From an uncultured Chloroflexia bacterium (GTDB taxonomy: Bacteria; Chloroflexota; Limnocylindria; Limnocylindrales; CSP1-4), in the NCBI GenBank assembly GCA_963831745.1, contig CAWHRD010000004.1, positions 46,005-110,004 of the forward strand: 64,000 nucleotides of DNA, in the 5' to 3' direction. The notes beneath the pieces are model-generated. The model searched no databases. It saw nothing but the letters and a program-made list of their open reading frames with translations, and was not told where the DNA came from. Position numbers and translations under genes: made by a program. Position 1 is the stretch's first letter. Every line of letters begins with the position of its first letter. Positions 45,844 to 64,000 of the stretch are shown in pieces.

Positions 45844-45891
45844 CGTGCCTCCGGTGGTGGCCCGGCCCATGGGCGGCGCCCGCCCGGCGAG

Positions 45892-47268: not shown

Positions 47269-47296
47269 CGTCGTGCTCCTCGGTCGACTCGGCGGG

Positions 47297-49600: not shown

Positions 49601-49655
49601 GGCGCTCCTCCGGGGGATCAGGGGTGTCGCCGGGATCGGCGACCGGGGCGGGGGA

Positions 49656-50468
49656 TCATGCGGGGATGACGCGGACTCCGCGCCGCTTGAACGTCCTGAG
49701 GGTGCGCTCGTCGAGCGTGGCGTCGGTGACGAGGATGTCGATGTCCTCGAGGCGTCCGGCCCCGATGAACGAGCGGGTTCCCAGCTTCGTCCCGTCGGCC
49801 AGCAGGATCACCTCGCGGGCCCGCGAGAGCACGAGCTGCTTCGTGTAGGCCTCCGACGGGTCGGTCGTGCTGAGGCCGTCCTCGACCGACAGCGCGAACG
49901 TGCCCATGAATGCGCGATCGACGTGCAGCTCGTCGAGGAGGTGCCGGGTCAGGGGTCCGACGACGGCCCGGCTCGTGGCTCGGAGCTCGCCGCCCAGCAT
50001 GATCAGGCGCGGCCCGCGACCGACCAGCTCCGTCGCGACCGGCAGGCTGTTCGTCACGACCGTCAGCCGGTTCCAGCCGTGCAGCAGGCGCGCCAGGGCG
50101 AGGACCGTGCTGCCGCTGTCGAGGTAGACCGTGTCGCCGGGGGAGAGCAGCTCAACCGCCCGGGCCGCGATCCGCGCCTTTTCCCCGGCGGCCGCGCCCG
50201 CCTTGACATCGAAGTGGGGCTCGTCGAGCCGCTGGTCGGCCGCGACGGCCCCGCCGTGAACCCGCCGCAGCCGGCCGGCCGCCGCGAGGGCGTTCAGATC
50301 GCGTCGGACCGTTGCCTGGGAGACCCCGAGCGCCGCGCTCAGCTCCTCGAGGCGGACGGCCCGGCGCGCGTCGACCAGGGCCTCGAGCCGCTGCCGCCGG
50401 GCCGCGGCGAGGTCGAGGCCGGTCGCCGAGCTGGGCGAATCATGCACGATCTTCCATGACATGCTCAT
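49656..50468 (-). CDS. DeoR/GlpR family transcriptional regulator
   Basis: N-terminal HTH (LSAALGVSQATVRRDLNALA) and a DeoR C-terminal sugar-phosphate-binding domain. Confidence 0.8.
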   Translation of the reverse strand: MSMSWKIVHDSPSSATGLDLAAARRQRLEALVDARRAVRLEELSAALGVSQATVRRDLNALAAAGRLRRVHGGAVAADQRLDEPHFDVKAGAAAGEKARIAARAVELLSPGDTVYLDSGSTVLALARLLHGWNRLTVVTNSLPVATELVGRGPRLIMLGGELRATSRAVVGPLTRHLLDELHVDRAFMGTFALSVEDGLSTTDPSEAYTKQLVLSRAREVILLADGTKLGTRSFIGAGRLEDIDILVTDATLDERTLRTFKRRGVRVIPA

Positions 50469-50559
50469 ACTCTAGCAGGATTGTGCGGGACCATGCAAGA
50501 ATAGGTGGCGAGCGGAGCGTTGCGCTTCTGGACGGAACGCCCCGAAGCCGATGAAGGAC

Positions 50560-50616
50560 CCCCCGGGCGGACCTCGAACCCCCGGGCGGACCTCGAACCC
50601 CCGGGCGGAGGTCGAA
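50560..50616. repeat. Three tandem 19-nt repeats (CCCCCGGGCGGACCTCGAA) about 90 nt upstream of the deoR-family gene
   Basis: Units at 50560, 50579 and 50598; the third has 2 mismatches. Confidence 0.55.
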
Positions 50617-51376
50617 CTCGATCAAATGCTCGCCCTCCGAGCCGTATGTAGGATGGGTCGGCAGCGGGACGGGCCGGTGGCTGGTGTCGGAGCGTGGGCG
50701 CCGGCGACCGACTCGATCAGATCCTCCGTTGGCCGGACTTTTGATCGAATGGCGACCCGCGGACATCGCATACGGTTCGGCACGCGAACATCCGATCCAG
50801 TGACGCGCCGCCGTGGACCCAGCGCCAGCCGTGGATCCAGCGCCAGCCGTGGATCTGCCGCCGCGGCCGCCGTCGCGCTCGCCCCGGGAGAGCGCCGCCC
50901 GCGGTGGATCTGCCGCTGTGCTGGACGGACCAGGGCCTCGACGTCCAGGTCGCGGCGTTCCAGCGCCGCCCGATCGCGTTCCCGGTCCGCTACGTCGTCC
51001 TCAACGGCCCGTTCGTCGGCGTCCGGAGCGCGAAGCACCGAGACGACAGCGTCCCGGGCGGTCGCCGCCGGGCCGGCGCGTCGCCGTCGCCTCGTCAGAC
51101 GCCGTGGACGGCCGGCGCGAGCTCCTCGATGAGCGCCGCGCGATGGCCGCGTCGACGGCCCCCCGGGGCGGAGCCTCGCCTCGCTCTCGAGCGACGGCTC
51201 GACCCCGACACGGTCGTCGCTCGTCGTCGGCGACAGGGCCGACGGGATCGCCGCCGCCGTCGCCGTCGCCGGGCGAGGGCCCGGGGCGACCGTCGCCCGG
51301 CCATCGGCCATCGACGAGCGTTGCGAGCGGGTGGCGGCGGCGGGGCGGCAACGTGACGCAAGCGCAACCTCGCCTG

Positions 51377-51424
51377 TTGACAGGGCGATTCGCGACCCAT
51401 ACTCTTCGTTAATCGATTATCGAG
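51377..51424 (+). promoter_or_regulatory. Candidate sigma-70-type promoter (-35 TTGACA, 17-nt spacer, -10 TACTCT) followed by the palindromic operator TTAATCGATTATCGAG
   Basis: -35 at 51377-51382, -10 at 51400-51405 and the perfect palindrome TAATCGATTA at 51410-51419. The same module recurs at 62393-62442. Confidence 0.5.
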
Positions 51425-51574
51425 GACCAAGCCGTCGGCACGGCCCGACGACAGTGGAGGAGTGTCCGACTCGATGCCCGGCTGCATCACGATGATCGAC
51501 CCGGGGCGTGCACAGCGGTTCGGCGCCGTCGTCCATCGCGATCGCGTCCCGCCCCGACCCAGGGGCGCCGGCTG

Positions 51575-52447
51575 ATGGACTTCGTCACCCAGTCCGTCGT
51601 CATCGGCCTCACCGAGTATGCCCCCCTCGTCCTCGCCGCGATCGGGTTCGCCCTGCTGTACCGCCTGAGCGGCCTCATCAACGTGGCCTATTCGGAGACC
51701 ATCACGCTCGGCGCCTACTTCGGGATGTGGATCAACACGACGTTCGGCCTCGACTTCTACATCGCGCTGCCCTTCGCCGGCCTGATGGGAGGGGTGGTGA
51801 GCGTCGCCACCTACCTGCTCCTCTTCCGGCCGGCCAAGCTGCGCGGCGTCGGGACGCTGGAGATGATCATCATCTCGTTCGGGCTGTCGATCTTCCTGCG
51901 TTACGGGCTGCAGTTCTTCTTCGGCTACCCCGTGCGCTTCTTCGACGTCCCGCCGCCCGATACGATCTACGTGCTCGGCGTCGGCGTGGGAACGTTCCGC
52001 GTGCTCGCCCTCGCCAGCGTGCTCGTCCTCGCGTTTCTCCTCTACTGGTTCATCCAGCGATCCAGCCTCGGCCTGCAGATCCGGGCCCTGGCCAGCGACG
52101 AGGACCTCGCCCAGGTCAGCGGGATCCGGCCGCTCGCCGTCACCGTGCTGATCTGGTTCATCGCAGGTGTCGCCGGCGGCCTGGCCGGCGCATACCTGGG
52201 AGTCGGGTCGGCCGTCGCGCCGCTGCTCGGCTGGCGGCAGTTCCTGTTCATCCTGCTCGTGGTCCTCGTCGGGACGAGCTGGGGGCTCGGCGGCGTCATC
52301 GTCGCCGGGGTGGTGGCCGGCGTGGGGCTGGCCGCCATGACCCTGGAGTTCAGCTCGGTCCTGTATGGCCAGCTCGTCCTGATCGCCGCCTTCGTCATCG
52401 TCCTGAAGTGGCGCGGCCGGCGGCTCGCCGAGACTGCGAAGGTGTAG
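51575..52447 (+). CDS. Branched-chain-amino-acid-type ABC transporter permease (LivH family)
   Basis: 290 aa, polytopic, with a LivH-like conserved loop. Confidence 0.85.
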   Translation: MDFVTQSVVIGLTEYAPLVLAAIGFALLYRLSGLINVAYSETITLGAYFGMWINTTFGLDFYIALPFAGLMGGVVSVATYLLLFRPAKLRGVGTLEMIIISFGLSIFLRYGLQFFFGYPVRFFDVPPPDTIYVLGVGVGTFRVLALASVLVLAFLLYWFIQRSSLGLQIRALASDEDLAQVSGIRPLAVTVLIWFIAGVAGGLAGAYLGVGSAVAPLLGWRQFLFILLVVLVGTSWGLGGVIVAGVVAGVGLAAMTLEFSSVLYGQLVLIAAFVIVLKWRGRRLAETAKV

Positions 52448-52451
52448 GGCG

Positions 52452-53390
52452 ATGCTTCCTTCGTTTCTGATCTCGGGGCTGTTCGGGCTCGTGATCGTGA
52501 TGGGCCTGGCCCTGCTGCTTCACCTCCAGCTGGGGCTCGCCCGGATCGCCAACTTCGGCGTGGTCGGGTTCTTCGGGCTCGGGATGTACGTCTTCGGCGT
52601 GCTCTACGTCAAGGTCGACTGGCCGTTCGGGGAGCCGTGGCAATTCCTCGCCTGCGCCGCCGCAGCGACGATCGTCGCCGGCCTCGCCGGCCTCGTGGTC
52701 GGGTGGATCATCTCCGACCTCGACACCGATGGAGTGCTCGTCGGCACCCTCGGCTTCGCCACCGCCGTCGGCATCCTCGCGACCACCGAGGCGGACCTCA
52801 CCGGCGGCGCCGAGGGGATGGGCGGCCTCGTCTTCCCCTACGACGTTGGCACCGTCAAGGACAACGAGTCCCTGTGGCTGCTGATCACGACCATCGTCAT
52901 CGTCGCGATCCTCGCCTTTGTTTGGCAGGTGCATCGCTCTCCGTACGGCCGCCTCCTCATCGCGGTGGGCGGCAACGAGCCGCTGGCCCGCAGCCTGGGC
53001 AAGCCGACCTTCCGGGCCAAGCTGTGGCTGTTCGCCCTCACCTCGGCGGTGATGGGGCTCCTGGGGGCGCTCGACGGGGTCATGGTGCACTTCCTCGACC
53101 CGGCAAACATCGGGATCGACGTGACCCTCGCCGCCATGGTCGGGCTCATCCTGGGAGGGACCGCCCGAGCCTTCGGTGCGGTGGTCGGCGTCATCCTCGT
53201 CGTCGGCTTCTTCGACATCGTGGTCCAGTTCTACCTGCCCCTCCCCAAGGACTGGTACAGCCAGGCCGTGCCCGTCCTGCGGGAGGCGGCGTTCGGCCTG
53301 ACGCTGATCGTCGTCCTGCTGTTCCGGCCGCTCGGCGTCCTCGGCGACATGCGGCGCGACAAGCTGATGAGGCAACTCCATGGTCGCTGA
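52452..53390 (+). CDS. Branched-chain-amino-acid-type ABC transporter permease (LivM family)
   Basis: 312 aa, polytopic; it follows livH with a 4-nt gap. Confidence 0.8.
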   Translation: MLPSFLISGLFGLVIVMGLALLLHLQLGLARIANFGVVGFFGLGMYVFGVLYVKVDWPFGEPWQFLACAAAATIVAGLAGLVVGWIISDLDTDGVLVGTLGFATAVGILATTEADLTGGAEGMGGLVFPYDVGTVKDNESLWLLITTIVIVAILAFVWQVHRSPYGRLLIAVGGNEPLARSLGKPTFRAKLWLFALTSAVMGLLGALDGVMVHFLDPANIGIDVTLAAMVGLILGGTARAFGAVVGVILVVGFFDIVVQFYLPLPKDWYSQAVPVLREAAFGLTLIVVLLFRPLGVLGDMRRDKLMRQLHGR

Positions 53391-54189
53391 GGCGGTGGCG
53401 TCGCCCGTCGTCGGCGCCGTAGCGGCAACGCGTCCCCGGATCCGGATCCAGGGTGCCGCCAAGAGCTTCTCGGGCCGGATCGTGGTGGACGTCGACGAGC
53501 TCGTCCTCGGCGACGGGCCGATCCAGGGCCTCATCGGGCCGAACGGCGCCGGCAAGACGACGTTGATGCGCATGATCATGCACTCGACGTCGCTCGACCG
53601 CGGCACCATCTCCCTCCTGCCGCCGGGGGGCGGCGAGGTGGTGCTCTCGAGCCTGCACGCGCACGAGATGGCGCGGCACGGCGTGGTGAAGAGCAACCAG
53701 GTCATCATGGACTTCGACAAGCTGACGATCTGGGATTCGCTCCTGCTCGCTGCGGCCGAGACCAGGTACGAGCAGCCGCACCGGATCTTCAGCGAACGGA
53801 CGGTCTTCCGGCGGCACGAGGACGAGATCCGCCATCACCTGGACTTCTTCGGGTTCGGCGACCCGACGGCCTTCGCCCTGTCGGCCGGCGAGAAGAAGCT
53901 CCTCGACATCGTCCGCTGCCTGCTCCTGCGTCCCACCTTCCTCCTGCTCGACGAGCCGACGGCCGGCCTTCCGGTGGAGCTGACCGAGAAGGTCATGGCC
54001 GTGATCAGGGAGCTTGCCTCCGCCGGCACCTCGGTGGTGATCGTGGAGCACGACCTCAACGTCATCTGGAACTACTGCGACGAGGTCCTGTTCATGGCCG
54101 AGGGGAAGGTCGTCCTGCGAGGCGACCCGCAGTCGATCCGCGAGAACAGGACCGTGGTCGAGAAGTACCTGGGGGAGGGCCATGTCTGA
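53380..54189 (+). CDS. ABC transporter ATP-binding protein (LivG family)
   Basis: Walker A GPNGAGKTT, signature LSAGEKKLLDI and Walker B LLLDEPTAGL. Confidence 0.85.
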   Translation: MVAEAVASPVVGAVAATRPRIRIQGAAKSFSGRIVVDVDELVLGDGPIQGLIGPNGAGKTTLMRMIMHSTSLDRGTISLLPPGGGEVVLSSLHAHEMARHGVVKSNQVIMDFDKLTIWDSLLLAAAETRYEQPHRIFSERTVFRRHEDEIRHHLDFFGFGDPTAFALSAGEKKLLDIVRCLLLRPTFLLLDEPTAGLPVELTEKVMAVIRELASAGTSVVIVEHDLNVIWNYCDEVLFMAEGKVVLRGDPQSIRENRTVVEKYLGEGHV

Positions 54190-54898
54190 CGCGGCCCGAC
54201 CGGTCGCCCTCGAGGTGGAAGGCCTGCGCAGCGGCTACCACGGGGTCACCGTCCTCAAGGGGCTCGACTTCGCCGTGGGCAACGAGGTCTTCACCGTGCT
54301 CGGCGCCAACGGGGCGGGCAAGACCACGCTCCTGGCGACGCTGGCCCGGCTCATCCCTCTCATGGCGGGAACGATCCGGTTCCAGGGCGAGGACGTCTCG
54401 ATGTTGCCGCCGTACGAGACGGCGGCCCGGGGGGTCGGCTACGTGCCCCAGGAGAAGGGCACCTTCCCGGATCTCACCGTCCTCGAGAACCTCGACGTCG
54501 GCGGGATGATCGGCAAGCGCTCACGTGAGGAGCGGATGGGAGAGGTGTTCGAGCTGTTCCCGGACCTCCGCGCCCTCCGGGCCCAGCGGGCAGGGACCCT
54601 CAGCGGCGGCGAGTCGCGGATGCTCGCCTGCGGGCGGGCGCTCATGCAGGACCCCCGGATGCTGCTCCTCGACGAGCCCACGGCCGGCCTCTCGCCGCTC
54701 TACGTCGACATGTTCTTCGACAAGATCAGGGAGATCCACGAGACCAAAGGCGTCGCCATCGTCCTGGCCGAGCAGAACGCCACCAAGGCGCTCCAGATCG
54801 CCGACCGGGTGATGGTGCTGAGCCTCGGACAGGCGTTCGCCGTGAAGGACGCGGCCGAGCTGACGACCCAGCAGCTCAAGGAGGGATACCGGATCTGA
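54182..54898 (+). CDS. ABC transporter ATP-binding protein (LivF family)
   Basis: Walker A GANGAGKTT, signature LSGGESRML and Walker B LLLDEPTAGL. Confidence 0.85.
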   Translation: MSDAARPVALEVEGLRSGYHGVTVLKGLDFAVGNEVFTVLGANGAGKTTLLATLARLIPLMAGTIRFQGEDVSMLPPYETAARGVGYVPQEKGTFPDLTVLENLDVGGMIGKRSREERMGEVFELFPDLRALRAQRAGTLSGGESRMLACGRALMQDPRMLLLDEPTAGLSPLYVDMFFDKIREIHETKGVAIVLAEQNATKALQIADRVMVLSLGQAFAVKDAAELTTQQLKEGYRI

Positions 54899-54941
54899 CG
54901 ACCCACGTTTCCGGGCTACGACAGCGCAGGAGGAGAACGCA

Positions 54942-56375
54942 ATGAGGGTCAGTCGCGTCCAGTCGAGCCGCGTCACGGTGGTGATCGCGGTGCTCGCCCT
55001 GGTGGCCGGCGCGTGCGGGGGCGGAGCGACCGCGTCGCCCGCAACGACGGCGGCGCCAAGTCAGGCCGCATCTGGGGCGCCTGCGTCCCAGGCGCCTGCC
55101 AGCGAATCGCCGGCGGCAGGCACGCCGGTGAACGTCTGCGAGCTCGCCTACGTCACGGGCGAGTTCGCGCCGTACGGGCCGGCGCTCAGCGCGGACGTGG
55201 TCTTCCCGGTCAAGAAGGTCATCAACCTCGATCCGCCGTTGGGCCGCCCGTGGGTGAACGTCAAGGAGGACCTCGGGACGGTCGGCGAGGCCCAGGCTGC
55301 CAAGGCCTGCCTCGAGAATGACGGTGCCGAGATCGTGGTGAGCATCGCCCACGGGTACCGGAACTATCGCGACTACATGATGCAGTACTGGGAGGAGAAC
55401 GACTCGCCGCTCGGCCCGTCGATCCACGGCGGCCTCATCCCGGGCAACCTCGGAGGCAAGGCCGCAGAGCCGATCTTCCGGGCGCAGGGCCTCGACGAGG
55501 GCCTGGGCGTCTACGCCGCCGAGTACGCGGACACGATCGGCGCCAAGAAGGTCGTGATCTTCGCCACCCAGGTGGCGGGCTTCCAGCTCGCAGCCAACGC
55601 GGCCGAGAAGGCCGCCAAGCTCTTCAACATGGAAGTCCTTGCCCGCATCAACGAGCCGGCCGAACAGACCTCCTATGCGGCCGACGCCCAGAAGATCGCG
55701 GGCCTCAAACCGGATGCGGTCATCGTGCAGGCGGGCTCGGTGGAGTCGGCCATCCTGATCAAGCAGGCGGCCGAGGCCGGCCTCGTGACCGCCTGGATCG
55801 GCGAGACCGGCTGGAGCCAGGCGGAGTTCATGAACCGCCTCGACGCCAAGACGATCGGCTCGCAGAAGGGCGTGGGCTACGCGGCCTTCTCGGCCAACAC
55901 GACGACCCCCGCGTGGACGTTCTTCCAGCCCTTGCGGGACGCCTGGGTCGCCGAGTCCGGGGTCGCCGCCAAGGACTACTACGGGGCGGACAACCCGTAT
56001 GCCTTCTCGGCATACGACGTCCTGGTCATGACTGCCCTCGCCGTGGAGTACGGAAAGTCGTACAAGGCGAGTGCGTGGGCACCGGCCATGCACACGATCG
56101 GCGACCCGCCGGGCGACAAGTGCTACACCTACGCCGACTGCCTGGCGCTGATCCGGGCCGGCAAGGACATCGACTACGAAGGCGTCACCGGCCCCGGCAC
56201 CTACACCGACGGTGGCGTCAACGCCGTCACCCCCACGTACACCGGGTTCGGCACGGACAAGAAGGCCGTGGCGCCCGTGCTTCTCGATCCCCAGAAGGCC
56301 CTCGAGATGCTCGACCAGGTCAAGACCGTCGCCGAGTGCGACAAGCCGGATCCGCCCAATACCTGCACGTGGTAG
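54942..56375 (+). CDS. ABC transporter substrate-binding lipoprotein (Leu/Ile/Val-binding-protein-like, type I PBP); unusually long (477 aa) and encoded last in the operon
   Basis: Lipobox LALVAGACGG, a Pro/Ala/Ser linker, then a type-I periplasmic binding fold. Confidence 0.8.
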   Translation: MRVSRVQSSRVTVVIAVLALVAGACGGGATASPATTAAPSQAASGAPASQAPASESPAAGTPVNVCELAYVTGEFAPYGPALSADVVFPVKKVINLDPPLGRPWVNVKEDLGTVGEAQAAKACLENDGAEIVVSIAHGYRNYRDYMMQYWEENDSPLGPSIHGGLIPGNLGGKAAEPIFRAQGLDEGLGVYAAEYADTIGAKKVVIFATQVAGFQLAANAAEKAAKLFNMEVLARINEPAEQTSYAADAQKIAGLKPDAVIVQAGSVESAILIKQAAEAGLVTAWIGETGWSQAEFMNRLDAKTIGSQKGVGYAAFSANTTTPAWTFFQPLRDAWVAESGVAAKDYYGADNPYAFSAYDVLVMTALAVEYGKSYKASAWAPAMHTIGDPPGDKCYTYADCLALIRAGKDIDYEGVTGPGTYTDGGVNAVTPTYTGFGTDKKAVAPVLLDPQKALEMLDQVKTVAECDKPDPPNTCTW

Positions 56376-56406
56376 CCGTCGAGAACCCCACGCTCTGACG
56401 GAGATC

Positions 56407-56445
56407 GAAGGGGGCTCTCCCGCCAACCGGCGGAGGGCCCCCTTC
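56407..56445 (+). terminator. Long imperfect GC hairpin about 30 nt after the binding-protein stop; candidate terminator of the ABC operon
   Basis: gaagggggctctcccgcc-aacc-ggcggagggcccccttc. Confidence 0.45.
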
Positions 56446-56553
56446 CTGCGCAGGGCGGCAGCCCGTCGCGCAACGTGCGGGGCGGCGGACGCCGCCCTCG
56501 ATCGAGGGCAACCTCCGAGCACCGAGGCCCGCGGCGGGCCCGAAGGAGGCGCC

Positions 56554-57231
56554 GTGACAGCGCAGCCCGAGCTCATCTCGCGCAGCGTCCTGGCGGACCA
56601 GGTGAAGGACCGCCTGCTGCAGGACATCCTCGCCGGGCGCTATCCCCCCGAGGCCCGGATCGTCGAGACGAGCCTGGCGCGCGAGCTGGGCGTCAGCCAG
56701 GCCCCGGTCCGCGAGGCGCTGCGCGGCCTCGAGGCCCTGGGGCTCGTCGAGATCCTCCCGTTCCGCGGCGCCCGGATCCGGCGCCCGTCGATCGGGGAGC
56801 TGCTCGAGGCGTACACCGTCCGCTTCGAGCTCGAGGCGCTGGGCGCCCGCCTCGGCGTGCCCCGCATGACGGACGCGGACCTCGCCGACCTCGAGGCGCT
56901 CGGCGACGAGATGCAGCGCGCCGCCGCGGCCGGCGACCGCCACCAGGTCGCCGTCGCCGACGCGATGTTCCACGCCCGGCTCCTCCACCTCGCCGGCAAC
57001 GCGACCCTCGAGCGCGTCTGGCGCTCGCTCGAGCCGTTCAGCCGGACCTACATCACCCTCGTCGCGCCCGGCGCCGACGCCCACTGGACGGCCGACCTCC
57101 ATCCCCGGATCCTCGCCGCCCTCCGCACCCGCGACGCCGAGCAGGTCGTCGCCGCCCTCCGCGAGCACTTCGACGAGGTGGCGGCGCACCTGGCGGACAC
57201 GTGGCATGGCGCACGACATGGGCCCGGCTGA
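56554..57231 (+). CDS. GntR family transcriptional regulator (FadR/FCD subfamily), copy 1
   Basis: wHTH (SLARELGVSQAPVREALRGLEALGLV) plus an FCD C-terminal domain. The GTG start is preceded by GAAGGAGG. Confidence 0.8.
   Translation: MTAQPELISRSVLADQVKDRLLQDILAGRYPPEARIVETSLARELGVSQAPVREALRGLEALGLVEILPFRGARIRRPSIGELLEAYTVRFELEALGARLGVPRMTDADLADLEALGDEMQRAAAAGDRHQVAVADAMFHARLLHLAGNATLERVWRSLEPFSRTYITLVAPGADAHWTADLHPRILAALRTRDAEQVVAALREHFDEVAAHLADTWHGARHGPG
56565..57205 (+). repeat. 641-bp exact direct repeat, copy 1 (covers most of GntR copy 1)
   Basis: Identical at DNA level to 57872..58512. Confidence 0.8.
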
Positions 57232-57790
57232 CCCACCCGCGGCCGTGCCTCGGGACCGGCGTGGGGCGGTCTCGCCGGAGTCCGCGGCGGTCCGGTTGGC
57301 CCGCGACTGCTACCTCGACGACCGGCACGTGTACGGCTGCGCGGAGACGGTGCTCGTCGCCCTCAAGGCCGCGTACGGCCTCGACGACCCGCTGGACTCC
57401 TCGGCGGCAATCGCCCTCAACGGCGGTCTCGCCTGGAGCGGGGGGCCGTGCGGCGCGCTCACTGGGGCGGCGATCGCGGTCGGCATGCTCGCCGAGCGGC
57501 GGCTCGGCGAGCATGCACGGGCGAAGCTCGTCGCGCGCGAGGTGATCGCGGCGCTTCTCGATGCGTTCGTCGTGGAGCACGGCGCCGTCGACTGCCGGGA
57601 CCTGGTCGGCGTCGACCTGCGGGCGCCGGGCGGGCACCAGGCGTTCATCGAGAGCGGTGCCTGGCGGGACGGCTGCCTGCGGCAGATCGAGTTCGTGGTG
57701 GGGCGGCTGGCAGCCCTGGCGGATCTCGCCGAGTGGGACAGGACGGTTCGCACGATCGAGGCGCCGCCCGGCGGCCGACTCGGCGCGTAG
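57206..57790 (+). CDS. C_GCAxxG_C_C family putative redox-active protein
   Basis: YGCAETVLVAL...GGPCGALTGAAIAVG, with downstream Cys residues (VDCRDL, DGCLRQI). Confidence 0.65.
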   Translation: MAHDMGPADPPAAVPRDRRGAVSPESAAVRLARDCYLDDRHVYGCAETVLVALKAAYGLDDPLDSSAAIALNGGLAWSGGPCGALTGAAIAVGMLAERRLGEHARAKLVAREVIAALLDAFVVEHGAVDCRDLVGVDLRAPGGHQAFIESGAWRDGCLRQIEFVVGRLAALADLAEWDRTVRTIEAPPGGRLGA

Positions 57791-57863
57791 ACTGCGGGAG
57801 TGGCGCGACCGGGCGGGGGCGGATCGCCCGGTGACCCGGGCGCCGCCGCGTCGAGGAGGATCG

Positions 57864-58571
57864 ATGACCGGGCCCGAGCTCATCTCGCGCAGCGTCCTGG
57901 CGGACCAGGTGAAGGACCGCCTGCTGCAGGACATCCTCGCCGGGCGCTATCCCCCCGAGGCCCGGATCGTCGAGACGAGCCTGGCGCGCGAGCTGGGCGT
58001 CAGCCAGGCCCCGGTCCGCGAGGCGCTGCGCGGCCTCGAGGCCCTGGGGCTCGTCGAGATCCTCCCGTTCCGCGGCGCCCGGATCCGGCGCCCGTCGATC
58101 GGGGAGCTGCTCGAGGCGTACACCGTCCGCTTCGAGCTCGAGGCGCTGGGCGCCCGCCTCGGCGTGCCCCGCATGACGGACGCGGACCTCGCCGACCTCG
58201 AGGCGCTCGGCGACGAGATGCAGCGCGCCGCCGCGGCCGGCGACCGCCACCAGGTCGCCGTCGCCGACGCGATGTTCCACGCCCGGCTCCTCCACCTCGC
58301 CGGCAACGCGACCCTCGAGCGCGTCTGGCGCTCGCTCGAGCCGTTCAGCCGGACCTACATCACCCTCGTCGCGCCCGGCGCCGACGCCCACTGGACGGCC
58401 GACCTCCATCCCCGGATCCTCGCCGCCCTCCGCACCCGCGACGCCGAGCAGGTCGTCGCCGCCCTCCGCGAGCACTTCGACGAGGTGGCGGCGCACCTGG
58501 CGGACACGTGGGCGGCAAGCCTGCCCGGCGCCACGCTCGCGATCCCGGTCGGCGAGCCGGCCCCGGGCTGA
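57864..58571 (+). CDS. GntR family transcriptional regulator (FadR/FCD subfamily), copy 2 (differs from copy 1 only at the extreme N- and C-termini)
   Basis: RBS GAGGAGGA before the ATG. The 641 internal nt are identical to copy 1. Confidence 0.8.
   Translation: MTGPELISRSVLADQVKDRLLQDILAGRYPPEARIVETSLARELGVSQAPVREALRGLEALGLVEILPFRGARIRRPSIGELLEAYTVRFELEALGARLGVPRMTDADLADLEALGDEMQRAAAAGDRHQVAVADAMFHARLLHLAGNATLERVWRSLEPFSRTYITLVAPGADAHWTADLHPRILAALRTRDAEQVVAALREHFDEVAAHLADTWAASLPGATLAIPVGEPAPG
57872..58512 (+). repeat. 641-bp exact direct repeat, copy 2
   Basis: Identical at DNA level to 56565..57205. Confidence 0.8.
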
Positions 58572-58689
58572 GGACGGCGCGCATCAACCCCGCGCGATCA
58601 GGCCCGTCCCGCGCGCCAGGGTTCCCGGCCGGGTCCGCGCCCGATCCGCACGCTCGGTACGGCTCGCCCTCCCTCGCGGACCGGGCGGC

Positions 58690-59637
58690 TCAGGCGTCGG
58701 CGCGGAGAATCGCCCGCACCTGCTCGGCGACGCGCGACGCCGACAGGCCGTAGATGTCGAGGAGGGCGTCGTTCGGACCCGACTCCGGATAGAGGTCCTG
58801 CAGGCCGATCCGGCTGACCCGGGTGGGTCGGTGCTCCCCCAGCGTCTCCGCCACCGCGCCGCCGAGCCCGCCGAGGACCGTGTGCTCCTCCACGGTGATG
58901 ACCCGGCCCGTCCGCTCGGCGGCCGCGACGATGGCCTCGACGTCGAGGGGCTTCAGCGTCGCGACGTGGAGGACGTGGGCGTCGATGCCGTCGGCGGCGA
59001 GGAGGTCGGCCGCGTCGACCGTCCGCGGCGTCTGGGCGCCGGTGCTGATGAGCGTGACGTCTCGGCCCTCCCGGACGACCTCGGCTCTCCCGAACCGGAA
59101 GATGTGGTCGTCGGCAAAGAGCCGCTGGGTGGGGTCGCGGACGAGGCGCACGTAGCACGGTCCCTCGTACGCGGCCGCCCAGCGCAGGGCCTGGGCGGCC
59201 TCGACATCGTCGGCTGGGGCGACGCTGACCATGCCCGGCATCGCCCGCATGATCGTCAGGTCGTCGACGATGATGTGGCTCATCCCCGTCTGCCCCGTGA
59301 AGAGCCCGGAGTAGCTCGGCGTGATCTTCACGTTGGCGCCCGTCTGGGCGATGAGCACCCGGATCTGGTCGAGAGGCCGGACCACGGCGAACGAGACGAA
59401 CGTGCTGATGAACGGCACCAGGCCCATCGTCGCCATGCCGGCGGCGACGCCGAGCATGTTCTGCTCGGCGATCCCCATCTGGAAGTACTTGTCCGGGTGG
59501 GCCTTCTCGAAGATGTCGGCCCGGGTGGAGCTGCCGACGTCGCCGTCGAGCATGACGACGCGCGGGTCGTCGTCGGCGATCGCGGCAACCGTCTCGCCGA
59601 AGATCTCCCGCATGGCGCGTCCGATCGGCAGGGTCAT
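58690..59637 (-). CDS. Transketolase, C-terminal subunit (split transketolase; Pyr plus C-terminal domains)
   Basis: 315 aa (MTLPIGRAMREIFGE...GIAEQNM...). ATGA overlap with the upstream N-terminal subunit. Confidence 0.85.
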   Translation of the reverse strand: MTLPIGRAMREIFGETVAAIADDDPRVVMLDGDVGSSTRADIFEKAHPDKYFQMGIAEQNMLGVAAGMATMGLVPFISTFVSFAVVRPLDQIRVLIAQTGANVKITPSYSGLFTGQTGMSHIIVDDLTIMRAMPGMVSVAPADDVEAAQALRWAAAYEGPCYVRLVRDPTQRLFADDHIFRFGRAEVVREGRDVTLISTGAQTPRTVDAADLLAADGIDAHVLHVATLKPLDVEAIVAAAERTGRVITVEEHTVLGGLGGAVAETLGEHRPTRVSRIGLQDLYPESGPNDALLDIYGLSASRVAEQVRAILRADA

Positions 59638-60899
59638 CGCGAAGCTCCTTCGCCGACCGGGTCCGGCTCGCCGAGCTCGGCCATCGCCTGGGCGAGCTCC
59701 TCGGGCTTGATGACTCGCGTGTGCCAGTAGTAGTGGCCCTCCATGAACGAGACGCCCTTCCCCTTGACCGTGTGGGCGATGACCGCGGTCGGGCGGCCGT
59801 CGTCGCCGTCGGCCGCCGTGCCGAGGACGCGGAGGATGTCGGGCATGTCGTGGCCGTCCATCTCGAGGACCCGCCATCCGAAGGCTTCCCACTTCGCGAC
59901 GAGCTCGCCCGGCACCTGGGGCGGGATGCGGCCGTCGGGCCCGTCGCCCGGCCAGCCGTACTGCTGCAGCCGGTTGTGGTCGACGATCGCGACGAGGTTC
60001 GAGAGCCGGTGGCGCGAGGCGGCCATGGCGGCCTCCCAGACCTCCCCCTCCTGGCACTCTCCGTCGCCGAGCATGACCCAGGCCCGCACGTCTCGGCCCG
60101 TGAGGCGGGCACCGAGCGCCATCCCCATCGCCGCCGAGATCCCCATGCCGAGCGACCCGCTCGACATGTCGAGCCCCGGCAGGCGGGTCATGTCGGGATG
60201 GCCCTGGAGGCGCGAGTTGGCGGCGTCGAACGTCGCGAGCTCCTCGACGGGGAAGTACCCGCGGAGCGCCATCGCGGCGTAGAGGCCGATCGACGAGTGG
60301 CCCTTCGACAGGACGAAGCGATCGCGATCCGGCCAGGCGGGCTCGTCGGGCCGGATGCGCAGCATCCGGAAGTAGAGCGCGGCGAGCATGTCCGCGGCCG
60401 AGAGGGGGCCGCCGATATGGCCGGCCTTCGCGATGTAGACGCTCCGGATGACCTCGACCCGGATCCGGCGCGCGACCTCCTGGAGGCGGGCGATCTCGCC
60501 GGCGTCCACGCCGGCGGCGAGCGACCCGCTCATGACCGGCCCTTCCGCTCGTACGACCCGGGCACCACCGGCGGGGAGAAGAAGCAGACGAGCTCGAGGG
60601 GCTCGGGCCCGTCCGATTTCGGTCGCGTGGAACGTGCCGACCGGGACCCAGACCGTCACGCCGGGCTCGACCTCCGCGGTTGCCTCGGGCGTCACGATCC
60701 GGCCGCGCCCCGCCGCGCAGTAGATCGTCTCCTCCTGCGTGTCGTGGACGTGGCCCGCCGGCTTCGAGCCGGGAGGGAAGATCGAGACCCCCATCGAGAC
60801 ACGCTCCGTCGGCGCGTTGTGCGGCCCAACGTACGTGTACCAGGCGCGCCCGGGCAGCGGGAAGAGCTCGGCCTCGTCGCGAGCCACTCGCTTGATCAT
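59634..60899 (-). CDS. Cupin-domain protein fused in frame to the transketolase N-terminal (ThDP-binding) subunit; alternatively an internal restart at ATG 60533 gives a stand-alone TktN
   Basis: N-terminal about 100 aa cupin (GHVHDTQEETIYCAAGRG...VPVGTFHATEIG) with no stop before MSGSLAAG...GHIGGPLSAADM...GDGECQEG (transketolase N-terminal motifs). Confidence 0.75.
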   Translation of the reverse strand: MIKRVARDEAELFPLPGRAWYTYVGPHNAPTERVSMGVSIFPPGSKPAGHVHDTQEETIYCAAGRGRIVTPEATAEVEPGVTVWVPVGTFHATEIGRARAPRARLLLLPAGGARVVRAEGPVMSGSLAAGVDAGEIARLQEVARRIRVEVIRSVYIAKAGHIGGPLSAADMLAALYFRMLRIRPDEPAWPDRDRFVLSKGHSSIGLYAAMALRGYFPVEELATFDAANSRLQGHPDMTRLPGLDMSSGSLGMGISAAMGMALGARLTGRDVRAWVMLGDGECQEGEVWEAAMAASRHRLSNLVAIVDHNRLQQYGWPGDGPDGRIPPQVPGELVAKWEAFGWRVLEMDGHDMPDILRVLGTAADGDDGRPTAVIAHTVKGKGVSFMEGHYYWHTRVIKPEELAQAMAELGEPDPVGEGASR

Positions 60900-60949
60900 G
60901 CGACACCTCTTGGGTCCGTGCGGATTTGGGGTGGGCGGTGGGCGTGGGG

Positions 60950-62044
60950 TCAGGCCGGCCGGGCGTCGGGATCGGGCAGGACGAGGTCGCGGATCGCCGC
61001 CTGCAGGTCGTGATATGACTTGACGAAGGTGCGCAGCGTGCGTGCGCTCGCGCCGAAGGCCTCGAACTCGTCGGGGGTCATTCCGTCCGGTTCGTAGGCC
61101 CGGCGGAAGTCGGGGACGCGCTCGTAGAGGTCGGCGATCAGCGCCGGGTCGACCGGCACGTCCATGCGCGGCTCGGGGGCGATCCCGCTCTTGTTGAAGC
61201 GGACCTGCCAGGGGTGGGGGAGGGTCATGCTCACGTCGCCGCCCACCAGCTCGGTCCAGTGCAGGCGGTGGCGGTACGCCGCGGCCAGCATCCGCGAGCG
61301 GTAGCCTCGCTCGCGGAAGATGCCGTACGCGCGCTTGAAGGCGGCGATCCCCGCCCAGTTCGGCGCGTCGGGGTGCACTGCGAGGTCGTCCCGCTCGACG
61401 AGGACCTTCATCCAGTCGTCGAGGCGGCCGATCATGATCGTGACGATCGGCGACATCGACGCAGTGTCGCCGCCGGCTGCCGCCCGCCGGGCCAGGCCGC
61501 GCTCCACGGCCTCGGCGGCGGCGACCGCCTGGGCGACCGTGAAGCTCACCGTGGCGTTGATGTTGACGCCGCGGAAGGTCGCCTCCTCGATGGCCGCGAT
61601 GCCGGCCGCCGTCGCCGGGAACTTCACCTGGATGTTGGGGGCGAGCCCCGCGAAGCGGACCGCCTGGTCGACCATCCGGACCGGGTCCCGATGGTTCGCC
61701 GGGTTCGTCTGGACGGAGAGACGGCCTGCGCTTCCGTTGCGAGCTTCGAACACCGGCTGCAGGATCCCGGCACCCCGGGAGGCCATCTCCTCGATGATCG
61801 CCCAGGTCAGCTCCACCTCGGACCAGGCGGGGTTGGCCGCGGCCATCTCGTGGACGCGGGGCGCCCAGTGGGCCCGTTCCTTCTTCATCACGTCGAGCAC
61901 GATGCTCGGGTTCGACGTCGCGCCGGTCGCTCCGCGCTCGACCGCGTATGCCAGCTCGTCGACGGCGCAGGAATTGTTCCAGTACTGGGTGGGCGTCTCC
62001 TGGGTCATTCGCAGGAGCGGGCTGTCGAGCGCGGTCATGACCAT
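60950..62044 (-). CDS. Transaldolase family protein (second copy in the window, long form)
   Basis: TQYWNNSC...TSNPSIVLD...QVKFPAT: transaldolase motifs. Start at the ATG giving MVMTALDSP. Confidence 0.75.
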   Translation of the reverse strand: MVMTALDSPLLRMTQETPTQYWNNSCAVDELAYAVERGATGATSNPSIVLDVMKKERAHWAPRVHEMAAANPAWSEVELTWAIIEEMASRGAGILQPVFEARNGSAGRLSVQTNPANHRDPVRMVDQAVRFAGLAPNIQVKFPATAAGIAAIEEATFRGVNINATVSFTVAQAVAAAEAVERGLARRAAAGGDTASMSPIVTIMIGRLDDWMKVLVERDDLAVHPDAPNWAGIAAFKRAYGIFRERGYRSRMLAAAYRHRLHWTELVGGDVSMTLPHPWQVRFNKSGIAPEPRMDVPVDPALIADLYERVPDFRRAYEPDGMTPDEFEAFGASARTLRTFVKSYHDLQAAIRDLVLPDPDARPA

Positions 62045-62392
62045 GGGGTCACCTCTGCGTGGAAGCGTGCCGGTCGGGCGCCAGGATGGGGCCGATGCAG
62101 GACGCCGCCCAGCTTCCGCCGATCTTCCCGGCGACGACGACCAGGCGTCGGACCGTCGTGGGCCTTGCCCTGCCGCGTGTTCGCCCCCATCCGCCTCCCT
62201 GTTGTGGATCGCGCGTCTCGCGTGCAGGCACATAATCGATCATCGATGCTTCTCGCGCAAGAGGGAAACTGGCGGGGTTGGCGTGGCGTCTCATCCGGGA
62301 AGACCCGGAGCGGGCTCACCCCGTGCCGGTGACCGCCGGCCGCCGCCCGTGCGCGTGCCGGCCGGCAACGAGCGGACGAAGCACGGCGAGGA

Positions 62393-62442
62393 CTTGACGC
62401 GGCCCGGCCTCGGTTCGTATCTTATCGGTAATCGATTATCGA
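62393..62442 (+). promoter_or_regulatory. Candidate promoter (-35 TTGACG, 18-nt spacer, -10 TATCTT) followed by the operator GTAATCGATTATCGAG; second copy of the module at 51377-51424
   Basis: -35 at 62393-62398, -10 at 62417-62422 and the palindrome TAATCGATTA at 62428-62437. It lies 80 nt upstream of the UPF0261 gene. Confidence 0.5.
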
Positions 62443-62521
62443 GTGTCGCGTTGCCATCCCTCGTCCCCGGATGGAGACGGATCTGGGCCGGCGCCGGGTC
62501 GAATTGCAGGAGGCTGTGCGC

Positions 62522-63772
62522 ATGGCGAGCGTCGTGCTCCTCGGGACCCTCGACACGAAGGGCGCGGAGTACGAGTTCCTGCGGGATCGCGTCCGCGACT
62601 TCGGCTGCGAGGTGGTCCTCGTCGATGCCGGCGTGCTGAGCGAGACGTCGCCCGGCGACATCACCGCGGACGAGGTGGCCGAAGCGGCAGGGGAGAGCCG
62701 GGCCGCGCTCGCCGCGGCGCATGACCGGGGCCCCGCCGTGCTGGCGATGACCCGCGGCGCCACGGAGGTCGTGCGGCGCCTCCACGCGGCGGGGCGGGTC
62801 GACGGCATCCTCGGCGTCGGCGGCTCGGGCGGCTCGTCGATCGTCGCCGCGGCGATGCAGGCGCTGCCGATCGGCGTCCCGAAGCTGCTCGTGTCGACGA
62901 TGGGCTCGGGTGACACCCGCCCGTATGTCGGCACCTCCGACATCGCGATGCTCTACTCGGTCGTCGACTTCGCGGGGATCAACGGCCTCTCGGAGAAGAT
63001 CCTCACCAACGCCGCCGCGGGGATCGCCGGCATGGCGAAGGCCTCGGCGGCCTTCACGTCGCGCATCCCGCCGAAGCCGCTGATCGGGGCCACGATGTTC
63101 GGGGTCACCACGCCCTGCGTGACGATCGCCCGCGAGTGGCTCGAGGCCCACGGCTACGAGGTCCTCGTCTTCCACGCCACGGGCTCCGGCGGGCGCTCGA
63201 TGGAGGCCCTCATGAAGGCCGGCTTCATCAGCGGGTCGCTCGACGTCACGACGACCGAGCTCGTCGACGAGCTGGTGGGCGGCGTGCTCTCGGCGGGGCC
63301 CGACCGGCTCGAGATGGCGGGCGCGCTCGGGCTCCCCCAGGTCGTGTCGCTCGGGGCCCTCGACATGTGCAACTTCGGGCCGCTCGAGACGGTCCCCGCC
63401 CGCTTCCGGGAGCGCAACCTCTACGTGCACAACAGCAGCGTCACGCTGATGCGGACGACCGAGGAGGAGTGCGCCGAGCTGGGTCGGATCATCGCCGGCA
63501 AGCTGAACCGGGCGACCGGCCCCCTGACGGTCTTCGTCCCGCTCGGCGGCGTGTCGATGATCGCCACGCCGGGCGGGCCGTTCCACGACCCCGCGGCCGA
63601 CGCGGCGCTGGTCCACGAGCTCCGGGCCGGGCTGCGGCCCGACGTCGAGGTCGTCGAGATGGCCACCGACATCAACGACCCCGCCTTCGCCATGGCGATG
63701 GCCGAGCGCCTCGACGCGCACTACCGCGCCTGGGCAGCCGCGAAGGCGTCGGACGCAAAAGGGCACGCATGA
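62522..63772 (+). CDS. UPF0261 / Tm-1-like ATP-binding domain protein
   Basis: [24 protein letters not shown]... is the characteristic UPF0261 N-terminus. SD GCAGGAGG 8 nt upstream of the ATG. Confidence 0.75.
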
Positions 63773-64000
63773 ACGGGAGCGAGGCGCTGGCGCGGCTCCG
63801 CCGCACGCTCGACGAGGGCGGCGTCATCATGGGCGCCGGGGCCGGGACCGGCCTCTCGGCCAAGTGCGCGGAGGCCGGTGGGGCGGACCTCATCATCATC
63901 TACAACTCGGGCCGCTACCGGATGGCCGGCCGAGGCTCGCTGGCCGGCTGCATGCCCTACGGCGACGCGAACGCGATCGTCATGGAGATGGCTGGGGAGG
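63769..64000 (+). CDS. Phosphoenolpyruvate-hydrolase-like (PEP-utilising TIM-barrel) family protein, 3' truncated by the window edge
   Basis: ATGA coupling to the UPF0261 stop. The N-terminus ([38 protein letters not shown]) is the conserved partner of UPF0261. Confidence 0.65.

Follow-up and report, generated by a model that had tools for sequence, protein, structure and literature searches.

A conserved gene island of uncultured Chloroflexota combining a Liv-type importer, an atypical split transketolase and a UPF0261 pair, and its possible role in sugar-acid catabolism

Gene content and extent of the island

We analyzed a stretch of 64,000 nucleotides from an uncultured Chloroflexia bacterium (contig CAWHRD010000004.1, positions 46,005 to 110,004; hereafter the window), in which the original prediction had singled out the segment 51575-64000 as a candidate catabolic island made of a Liv-type importer, GntR regulators, a split transketolase, a transaldolase and a UPF0261/PEP-hydrolase-like pair. 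These genes indeed appear to form an uncharacterised catabolic unit, in which importer, transketolase/transaldolase carbon shuffling, UPF0261 pair and GntR regulators share one operator, and which is co-conserved, with rearrangements, in related genomes. The statement that no characterised pathway combines these parts also stands, as we found no paper describing such a combination.

Because the window has a G+C content of ~72%, genes were chosen by third-position GC (GC3) and reading-frame plots, and then searched against Pfam. The forward strand carries four importer genes in GC3 frame, coding for two permeases with BPD_transp_2 domains, LivH (51575-52447) and LivM (52452-53390), and two ATPases with ABC_tran domains, LivG (53380-54189) and LivF (54182-54898). 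On the same strand follow the gene for a 477-aa substrate-binding protein, a probable lipoprotein (54942-56375), and a pair of GntR regulators flanking a gene of the C_GCAxxG_C_C family. Both regulators (copy 1, GTG start, 56554-57231; copy 2, ATG start, 57864-58571) have their own ribosome-binding site and start codon, differ in their C-terminal tails, and combine the N-terminal GntR helix-turn-helix with the C-terminal FCD domain of the FCD subfamily, so that the block has its own GntR/FCD regulators, as had been proposed. The protein encoded between them (57206-57790; PF09719, 61.9 bits) keeps all four signature Cys and scores 47.1 bits against TIGR01909, just below the 47.4 cut-off.

The reverse strand encodes a second, divergent transaldolase (Tal2, 60950-62044; TAL_FSA, 118 bits), a small metal-type cupin of 122 aa whose gene is frameshifted at about 60619 (60530-60899; Cupin_2, 43.5 bits for the repaired protein), and the two subunits of a transketolase, TktN, which is the thiamine-diphosphate subunit (59634-60533; Transketolase_N, 167 bits), and TktC, with the Pyr and C domains (58690-59637). 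Back on the forward strand lie a UPF0261 protein, a putative ATP-dependent small-molecule kinase (62522-63772, the longest open reading frame starting at 62471; N and C domains with 212 and 310 bits), and the first 77 aa of a PEP-hydrolase-like TIM barrel, cut by the window end (63769-64000; PF09370, 110 bits). These genes make up three transcription units: livHMGF with the binding protein gene, the GntR-C_GCAxxG_C_C-GntR genes lying downstream on the same strand; tal2-cupin-tktN-tktC; and a unit that starts with UPF0261 and the PEP-hydrolase-like gene.

The segment 51575-64000 does behave as a single conserved unit, but the true unit is larger. As judged from gene neighbourhoods in relatives, it also takes in a second reverse-strand operon (44755-50468) and runs past 64000, so that the island measures at least 19 kb (from window position 44755 to beyond 64000), of which 51575-64000 is the larger part. 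This operon codes for a DeoR-family regulator with a sugar-phosphate-type sensor domain (49656-50468; HTH_DeoR and DeoRC), a fused E1 alpha+beta thiamine-diphosphate dehydrogenase component of 767 aa (47297-49600; E1_dh, Transket_pyr and Transketolase_C), an E2 dihydrolipoamide acyltransferase (45892-47337; Biotin_lipoyl, E3_binding and 2-oxoacid_dh) whose true start is probably the Met at 47268, and a first transaldolase of the canonical long type (Tal1, 44755-45870; TAL_FSA, 231.6 bits).

A shared operator

An AT-rich 18-bp palindrome, TCGnTAATCGATTAnCGA, is present at three promoters of the island, ahead of livH, tal2 and UPF0261, just downstream of or overlapping the -10 region. The first copy, O1 (TCGTTAATCGATTATCGA, 51406-51423, forward strand), directly follows a promoter-like TTGACA-17-TACTCT ahead of livH (51376-51423 for the whole feature); O2 (ATAATCGATCATCGATG, 62229-62249, reverse strand) lies upstream of the tal2-cupin-tktN-tktC operon; and O3 (TCGGTAATCGATTATCGA, 62425-62442, forward strand) follows a promoter-like TTGACG-18-TATCTT (62394-62423) upstream of UPF0261. 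The 14-mer core of the motif has 11 matches with up to three mismatches in the window versus 0.69 expected, and these cluster at three intergenic sites (51406-51426, 62229-62249 and 62422-62445). Cupin and tal2 are 50 bp apart in the window with no motif between them, and tal2-cupin-tktN-tktC is therefore read as one unit.

The same motif is kept at orthologous promoters, in agreement with the claim that the block shares a single operator. With up to two mismatches, the 14-mer core occurs at 55 sites in 0.25 Mb of sequence from 12 related loci, versus 12 sites in 1.44 Mb of unrelated UPF0261 loci, and in relatives the sites precede livH, the cupin gene, tal2, UPF0261 or the gene of a ~590-aa protein described below. 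All eight loci around homologues of the binding protein (L081-L088) have the motif upstream of livH. Orthologues of O2 precede either tal2 or the cupin gene in L001, L003, L081-L084 and L087, and orthologues of O3 precede UPF0261 in L001, L003, L082 and L083. In the window and in L084 the livH operator sits in the spacer shared by deoR and livH; DeoR-E1-E2 does not diverge from livH in L082 and L087, and there its own upstream spacer contains no site. This operon is presumably under the control of DeoR.

A weak operator-like site with three mismatches (AAGTCGATCATCGATCT, 29403-29419) is found within an amino-acid-permease gene (27354-29639) or at its end, probably by chance. No riboswitch or other RNA was matched by Rfam at E <= 1 over 44000-64000.

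Conservation in related genomes

We compared the island with loci from two sources, a genome scan with UPF0261 (L001-L004 and others) and the surroundings of binding-protein homologues (L081-L088). An exact-sequence search with the UPF0261 protein of the window, in two versions with alternative starts, gave no match. The species-representative genome set does not include the source genome, the nearest UPF0261 being 88% identical. The UPF0261 scan gave 80 loci, the best of which are metagenome-assembled genomes of uncultured Chloroflexia/Chloroflexota with 77-88% identity. Of the 80, 68 have a PEP_hydrolase gene beside UPF0261 and 31 a small cupin of the same family, usually encoded right behind PEP_hydrolase; 30 encode Liv-type ATPases, 19 a Peripla_BP_6 binding protein and 18 Liv permeases, and the order Liv importer-UPF0261-PEP_hydrolase-cupin recurs in other phyla. 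By contrast, split transketolase and Tal2 accompany the UPF0261 pair in only four loci, the four closest. The proposed co-occurrence of such pairs with Liv importers and split transketolases is thus borne out for the importers (about 19-30 of 80 loci), whereas the transketolase part holds for this Chloroflexota lineage alone, and we rejected a general link between split transketolases and UPF0261 pairs.

Within the lineage, L001-L004 all keep Tal2, the cupin and the UPF0261-PEP_hydrolase pair, and three of the four the transketolase subunits. Around binding-protein homologues of 62-84% identity, cupin-TktN-TktC adjoins the importer in five of eight contexts (L081-L084 and L087), which also carry GntR, C_GCAxxG_C_C, UPF0261-PEP_hydrolase, the ~590-aa protein and DeoR (or SorC)-E1-E2 in varying order; L084 has exactly the gene order of the window, and in L085, L086 and L088 the importer stands alone. 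Proteins of the island are 57-96% identical to those of relatives (most 70-90%), the C_GCAxxG_C_C homologues of L001, L081, L083 and L084 being 57-73% identical. Homologues of the island genes therefore co-occur, although rearranged, in at least nine other Chloroflexota genomes, which is the opposite of the lack of co-conservation that would have spoken against a unit.

In other phyla, the best matches of genes neighbouring the UPF0261-PEP_hydrolase-cupin triad are IolM-, IolN-, IolO-, IolG- and IolE-like, all below cut-off. Genes of the triose-phosphate-isomerase and RpiB families adjoin the island in L087 (1479-6364) and, fused, in L085 (1-916), and in L087 two PEP_hydrolase genes flank UPF0261. 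L084 has a Y_phosphatase gene as a neighbour, which runs off the end of the locus. A second module found in Actinomycetota (L013, L022, L033, L042, L048 and L062) comprises a GlcD-like FAD oxidase, a xylose-isomerase-like TIM barrel, a creatininase-family hydrolase and a second UPF0261, joined by DeoR in L013 and L022.

The importer and its binding protein

The importer has the composition of HAAT (LivJHMGF) systems, with two BPD_transp_2 permeases, two LivG/LivF-type ATPases and a type-I binding protein in one operon, and its LivHMGF components are 75-90% identical to their counterparts in L081-L085. The binding protein scores 29.6 bits against Peripla_BP_6, under the gathering score of 31.7, and its homologues carry PF13458. 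An AlphaFold model (mean predicted local distance difference test score, pLDDT, of 81) matches LivJ-type structures at probability 1.0 in Foldseek, and on this model 54942-56375 is assigned to the type-I (Peripla_BP_6) substrate-binding proteins. Its structural neighbours are leucine-, urea- and aromatic-acid-binding proteins, all equally distant, and a search of PDB sequences with the protein gave nothing significant. Residues 1-56 are disordered in the model and correspond to the signal and a low-complexity Ala/Pro/Ser linker; the protein had been described as an unusually long lipoprotein, and the importer and the 477-aa length are indeed there, but the extra length is mostly this 56-residue signal and linker.

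Unlike known HAAT binding proteins, that of the island is only 13-18% identical to solved members and belongs to a family of its own. This family comprises 768 homologues, the best 120 at 61-84% identity; the few that are named by source are labelled Chloroflexota or Limnocylindrales, and the binding protein of the loci from the UPF0261 scan has no sequence relationship with it. Six Cys are invariant in an alignment of 36 sequences (C66, C123, C394, C400, C466 and C475 in the window protein), and three disulfides are therefore suggested for this extracytoplasmic protein.

An atypical split transketolase and a separate cupin

The transketolase is a genuine split enzyme, with the Transketolase_N, Pyr and C domains on two polypeptides encoded by overlapping genes (274 bits to the split transketolase 6YAJ). 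TktN is 79-87% identical to its orthologues; its catalytic His motifs, read by eye, presumably correspond to those of the E. coli enzyme. TktC aligns end to end with 6YAJ and human TKT (4KXU), and keeps the equivalents of Arg358, Ser385 and Arg520 (E. coli numbering). However, the canonical substrate-channel residues His461 and Asp469 (GEDG motif) are not kept (SYSGLFTGQTGMSH versus canonical THAGLTVGEDGASH): the window has SYSGLFTGQTGMSHI where 6YAJ and human TKT have THAGLTVGEDGASHQ or SHCGVSIGEDGPSQ, which amounts to the substitutions His461Tyr, Glu468Gln and Asp469Thr. The resulting GY(A/S)G..TGxTG motif is present in all eight TktC orthologues. It is also found in the nearest 50%-identity clusters of a scan of 1.84 billion representatives and marks a clade, the canonical GEDG/GPDG motifs predominating among matches below ~45% identity. 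One member of this clade, 52% identical to TktC, has as gene neighbours an Iso_dh hydroxy-acid dehydrogenase on one side and a small P-loop kinase on the other.

His461 normally binds the substrate phosphate, and D469T makes the enzyme more active on propanal, an aldehyde without an alpha-hydroxyl (PMC3657141); engineered transketolases containing D469T take aliphatic and aromatic aldehydes (PMC5073344). Laboratory changes at 461 and 469 shift specificity away from phosphorylated, 2-hydroxylated aldehydes (PMC3657141, PMC5073344). TktC resembles the engineered E. coli variants D469T, H461S and S385Y/D469T/R520Q in having Thr at 469 and a residue other than His (Tyr) at 461, but differs from them in being natural, split and conserved across a lineage; since it keeps the equivalents of Arg358 and Arg520, an anionic substrate is still likely. 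A natural clade altered at both positions that engineers have targeted, including the identical Asp469Thr, is of interest for biocatalysis.

The original prediction had the cupin as a domain carried by the N-terminal transketolase subunit. The two-subunit enzyme is confirmed, but the cupin is a separate gene of 121-122 aa in L001-L003, L081-L084 and L087, its stop overlapping the tktN ATG. In the window, GAAATCG stands at the junction where L002 reads GAATCG, and beyond it the C-terminus of the cupin (SDGPEPLELVCFFSPPVVPGSYERKGRS*) continues in the +1 frame; without one A of the A run at about 60619, the cupin is again 122 aa long and its end overlaps the tktN ATG at 60533 in ATGA. Given the separate gene in relatives and the extra A, the apparent 421-aa cupin-TktN protein is the product of a one-base frameshift that merges two genes, and the fusion was rejected. 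The sequence alone fits a real mutation as well as an assembly error.

Two transaldolases and an E1-E2 complex

The window has two transaldolases, as had been noted. Tal1 scores 431.9 bits against NCBIfam NF002881, above the cut-off of 367, and is the last gene of the DeoR-controlled E1-E2-Tal1 operon, a place after E2 that it also has in L084. For Tal2, all NCBIfam transaldolase models remain below cut-off. It keeps the Schiff-base Lys and the Asn/Thr of the NxT motif in our alignment, whereas it and all its orthologues have Gln in place of Glu96, the catalytic Glu, and Met in place of Phe178. A further change is restricted to the window, where the equivalent of the catalytic Asp17 is Asn (WNNSC versus WNDSC in four orthologues); its AAT codon (61973-61975) belongs to the A/T-ending codons, which are rare in this genome. 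These residue numbers refer to the presumed equivalents in TalB. A transaldolase with Gln for the catalytic Glu is likewise of biocatalytic interest.

Transketolase and transaldolase had been proposed to form a carbon-shuffling set like that of the non-oxidative pentose-phosphate pathway. Their coupling holds, but TktC and Tal2 are not ordinary members of their families, given their conserved active-site substitutions, and on these substitutions, the operator and synteny we rejected a housekeeping role for them in the pentose-phosphate pathway.

E1 orthologues of 765-768 aa adjoin the importer in L081, L082, L084 and L087; DeoR precedes E1-E2 in L082, L084 and L087, and in L081 a SorC-type regulator takes its place. 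The E2 linker of the window contains a perfect tandem duplication of a 15-residue segment (46648-46737; ARGGAPVPGQPMAAA twice). In L003, L004 and L084 an aldehyde dehydrogenase is encoded between tal2 and the cupin gene. That of L084, the only one scored, reaches 614 bits against TIGR01722 (CoA-acylating methylmalonate/malonate-semialdehyde dehydrogenase; CoA, coenzyme A), versus a cut-off of 448.

UPF0261, its TIM-barrel partner and the His-swivel protein

The UPF0261 and PEP-hydrolase-like families span bacteria, archaea, fungi and plants, where they make up Tm-1, with a reaction known for one phenol kinase only. The family had been called functionally unassigned, which no longer holds for this single member, MarK (Saro_1862) of Novosphingobium aromaticivorans, an ATP-to-ADP kinase of phenolic ketones (PMC12624787, 2025), and remains true of the others. 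The island protein scores 287 bits against Tm-1 (3WRY) and 231 bits against MarK (9MPY). It shares with MarK the two-domain fold, the D-T-K residues of the ATP site, the equivalents of Gly195 and His219, which hold the phosphoryl-acceptor oxygen, and that of His304. By contrast, four of the seven substrate-pocket residues differ, the aromatic-pocket residues of MarK being replaced (Thr196Val, Phe283Met, Ile285Asn and His348Ile), the protein is closer to plant Tm-1, and the MarK operon contains biotin carboxylase and phosphatase genes with no PEP-hydrolase-like partner.

The start of the PEP-hydrolase-like gene overlaps the UPF0261 stop, and its 77 aa in the window are 92-96% identical to the full-length neighbours in L001-L004 and L082. 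The full-length homologue of L002 matches 2P10 (Mll9387) at 351 bits. We take this TIM barrel to be a member of the phosphoenolpyruvate/pyruvate-binding superfamily. A search of the literature on PF09370, TIM-barrel signal transduction, Mll9387, and clusters of cupin and split transketolase retrieved nothing functional. The two families encoded by adjacent genes here are fused in the streptophyte Tm-1 and are thought to be of bacterial origin (PMC5028733); unlike Tm-1, which acts as an ATP-bridged inhibitor of a viral replicase, the island genes are separate and lie in a putative catabolic regulon. The island thus places the UPF0261 pair in a defined setting with importer, binding protein, repressors and operator, which makes its function directly testable.

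In relatives, the gene directly after the PEP-hydrolase-like one encodes a ~590-aa Rph_4th/PEP-utilizers protein whose C-terminal 200 residues match the swivel-His region of rifampin phosphotransferase; we infer that this genome has it too, beyond the window end. Its architecture is that of HpeH, a protein made up of the swivel and substrate domains of rifampin phosphotransferase (PMC12167813). In contrast to HpeHI/AcvAB and rifampin phosphotransferase, no ATP-grasp partner (HpeI/PPDK_N) is encoded in any of the listed loci with the swivel-His protein, and UPF0261 and the TIM barrel are there instead. The sole other swivel-His protein of the window is a complete three-domain protein of the pyruvate phosphate dikinase/phosphoenolpyruvate synthase type (12963-16211; open reading frame of 1082 aa with PPDK_N, PEP-utilizers and PEP-utilizers_C), 35 kb upstream.

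A possible sugar-acid regulon and its alternatives

Taken together, we give an even chance (about 0.5) to the reading that uncultured soil Chloroflexota have in this island a conserved catabolic regulon under repressor control, dedicated to one small anionic sugar-like substrate, most likely a deoxy-keto aldonic or uronic acid. This reading is based on the FCD-type regulators and the sugar-phosphate-type DeoR, on a transketolase that keeps the anion-binding arginines and loses the phosphate-binding His and the 2-hydroxyl-binding Asp, on the malonate-semialdehyde dehydrogenase of sister operons, and on the sugar-acid/cyclitol-like neighbours of the UPF0261-PEP_hydrolase-cupin triad in other phyla, with the caveat that their Iol-type matches are below cut-off. 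An amino sugar or a C-glycoside, suggested earlier as substrate, finds no specific support; the dehydrogenase and the FCD regulators point to a carboxylated deoxy/keto sugar acid. The carriers seem to be uncultured soil Chloroflexota (labelled Chloroflexia or Chloroflexota, one protein Limnocylindrales), whose carbon sources are poorly known.

In the pathway that we propose, a GntR/FCD repressor would bind the palindrome and be released by a carboxylate effector, and the Liv-type importer with its family-specific binding protein would take up the substrate. The small cupin, translationally coupled to tktN, would act as an aldose/ketose isomerase that makes the ketol donor, from which the atypical split transketolase and/or Tal2 would move a C2 (or C3) unit to a sugar-phosphate acceptor. 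This step would free an aldehyde acid without a 2-hydroxyl, for which malonate semialdehyde would be the best candidate because sister operons put a CoA-acylating malonate/methylmalonate-semialdehyde dehydrogenase between tal2 and cupin. UPF0261 would be the ATP-dependent kinase of the pathway together with the PEP-hydrolase-like TIM barrel and, in relatives, would also work with the HpeH/rifampin-phosphotransferase-like His-swivel protein encoded directly downstream. Finally, E1-E2-Tal1, controlled by DeoR and induced by a phosphorylated intermediate, would turn the remaining carbon into acyl-CoA and pentose-phosphate intermediates.

Such a logic would parallel two known routes, the sulfo-transketolase/sulfo-transaldolase (sulfo-TK/sulfo-TAL) pathways and the distal steps of inositol catabolism (IolB-IolC-IolJ-IolA). 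The latter also act on a 2-deoxy keto acid sugar by isomerase, kinase, C-C cleavage and CoA-acylating malonate-semialdehyde dehydrogenase, but their enzymes are not orthologous to those of the island: the cupin is a 122-aa Cupin_2 protein, not a member of the KduI/IolB family; the kinase is UPF0261 and not PfkB, no PfkB kinase or aldolase gene being detected in the island by Pfam; and cleavage would proceed via transketolase/transaldolase or the PEP-hydrolase-like TIM barrel rather than a class II aldolase.

Several points weigh against this pathway. Its enzymatic roles are all deduced from family membership and residues. The only characterised UPF0261 enzyme phosphorylates phenols, not sugars, and no reaction is known for the PEP-hydrolase-like family. 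The whole window and several relatives (L001, L082, L083 and L087) lack the malonate-semialdehyde dehydrogenase, and genes found nearby in some relatives (Mo-hydroxylase, cyclase, FAH and ABM) resemble those of aromatic or heterocycle catabolism. Pairs of triose-phosphate isomerase and RpiB typically serve to isomerise tetrulose phosphates in erythritol, threitol and apionate pathways, and the presence of such genes in L087 and L085 would fit tetrulose-phosphate chemistry instead. As for regulation, the operator is defined by sequence conservation, its regulator is a candidate only, and the palindrome lacks what we take to be the usual GT-N-AC core of GntR operators.

Moreover, given the cupin frameshift and the catalytic Asp-to-Asn change of Tal2, the tal2-cupin-tkt operon may not function in this genome. 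The island might then be real in relatives and decaying or inactive here, its lesions being genuine and not sequencing errors. In addition to the A-run frameshift and the WNNSC motif, this would agree with the missing dehydrogenase and with an insert of ~830 bp upstream of livH, where only ~180 bp of the 1.1-kb spacer are common with L084. We nevertheless consider decay rather unlikely: the remaining genes are all intact, their coding signal in GC3 being strong and their identity to orthologues 70-90%; long-read assemblies typically contain errors such as single-base indels in homopolymers, and L004 has several such breaks; and the aldehyde dehydrogenase is also absent from the intact-looking L001, L082, L083 and L087.

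Somewhat less probable still is a role in aromatic catabolism, with a lignin-derived phenolic or aryl-ketol as substrate and a binding protein that belongs functionally with aromatic-acid binders. UPF0261 and the HpeH-like protein would phosphorylate a phenolic hydroxyl, as do MarK and HpeHI, and the Asp469Thr-type transketolase and acetoin-dehydrogenase-like E1-E2 would cleave aryl alpha-hydroxy ketones into an aromatic aldehyde and a C2 unit. Consistent with this are the phenol kinase activity of MarK, the match of the 590-aa protein to the region of rifampin phosphotransferase that makes up HpeH, the acceptance of aromatic aldehydes by engineered transketolases containing D469T (PMC5073344), the hydroxybenzoate-, vanillate- and coumarate-binding Peripla_BP_6 proteins among the structural neighbours of the binding protein, and the Mo-hydroxylase, cyclase, FAH and ABM genes that flank the UPF0261 pair in several loci. 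However, these structural matches are no better than those to leucine or urea binders, the specificity residues of MarK are not conserved, and the island has no ring-cleavage dioxygenase, carboxylase (AcvCDE/HpeCBA) or CoA ligase. Two transaldolases, DeoR, the malonate-semialdehyde dehydrogenase and the triose-phosphate-isomerase/RpiB neighbours point to sugar chemistry.

The likeness to sulfo-TK/sulfo-TAL systems (SqvD, SqwGH and SqvA) raises the question of a sulfonate pathway, in which a sulfonated ketose would be cleaved by the two atypical enzymes, transketolase and transaldolase, to sulfoacetaldehyde or sulfolactaldehyde; a dehydrogenase would oxidise this aldehyde, and the product would leave the cell by export. 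In these systems a two-subunit transketolase and a transaldolase are encoded together (PMC12890257, PMC11659671); split SqwGH takes non-phosphorylated anionic ketoses as substrates, from which it releases sulfoacetaldehyde (PMC12890257), acting jointly with the transaldolase on sulfofructose in a bifurcated pathway (PMC11659671; PMC12890257), and sulfo-TAL is reported in Chloroflexi (PMC12890257). The chemistry that we propose would be similar, with a post-isomerase ketose bearing an anion other than phosphate, transfer of C2/C3 to glyceraldehyde-3-phosphate, and a small anionic aldehyde passed to a dehydrogenase. Sulfoacetaldehyde, having no 2-hydroxyl, would also fit Asp469Thr; an EamA exporter adjoins UPF0261 in L082 and L083, and a gene of the 2-phosphosulfolactate-phosphatase family adjoins E2 in L081. 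Yet we found by Pfam no sulfoquinovosidase, SqvD-type isomerase, sulfoacetaldehyde/sulfolactaldehyde reductase, acetyltransferase or sulfite/sulfonate exporter in the window, L081-L084 and L087, the island having neither SqwI, SqwF nor other sulfonate-specific genes. Its importer is Liv-type and not sugar-type, its relatives' aldehyde dehydrogenase scores above cut-off as a malonate/methylmalonate-semialdehyde enzyme, and it has a UPF0261 kinase module and an E1-E2 complex, whereas the known sulfo-TK/TAL routes need no kinase. A sulfonate substrate is therefore improbable in our view.

That an ordinary importer of branched-chain amino acids, housekeeping enzymes of the pentose-phosphate pathway and an unconnected UPF0261 pair lie together by chance is essentially excluded: Liv-type and tkt/tal genes are common, the importer stands alone in L085, L086 and L088, and most UPF0261 loci are without tkt/tal, but the operator is common to units and genomes, the genes stay together despite rearrangement in at least nine genomes, the active sites of Tkt and Tal2 depart from the canonical ones, and the binding protein is not close to characterised amino-acid binders.

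A bolder reading, in which two linked proposals hold jointly, is speculative, and we would not expect it to be borne out in full. Firstly, UPF0261, whose ATP site lies on a fold other than ATP-grasp, the HpeH-like swivel-His protein and the TIM barrel would be a new phosphotransfer enzyme of three polypeptides that assembles the three modules of pyruvate phosphate dikinase in trans. Secondly, the Tyr461/Thr469 split transketolase would cleave a carboxylated 2-deoxy ketose into malonate semialdehyde and a C2 unit that goes to the pentose-phosphate pool, a natural "carboxy-TK" route. If true, the former would give a biochemical role to the UPF0261/TIM-barrel pair that plants fused into Tm-1, and the latter would be the carboxylate counterpart of sulfo-TK.

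The GntR repeat and the DeoR-livH spacer

The regulator genes had been described as duplicated GntR, and two GntR/FCD genes do flank C_GCAxxG_C_C; more precisely, they share an exact direct repeat of 640 bp (56565-57204 and 57872-58511, with a spacing of 1307 bp). L084 has the same layout, and its own two copies are 100% identical over 630 bp (about 11607-12236 and 12927-13556), versus an identity of only ~85% between the GntR DNA of the window and that of L084. Given full identity within each genome and ~85% between them, this looks like concerted evolution (gene conversion) of a pair that is older than the split of the two genomes, which appears to be ongoing. The direct repeats could mediate loss or amplification of the C_GCAxxG_C_C gene between them.

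The spacer between deoR and livH is 1.1 kb long, of which the last ~180 bp, 85% identical, are the sole part common with L084. The other ~830 bp (50469-51300) are absent from the 263-bp spacer of L084 and show no homology to the rest of the window or to any of the loci compared; an open reading frame at 50745-51356 has a coding-like GC3 signal and no Pfam match. Repeats lie in this part, including at 50556-50617 and 50819-50916: three tandem 19-bp units (GAACCCCCGGGCGGACCTC) and other short direct ones.

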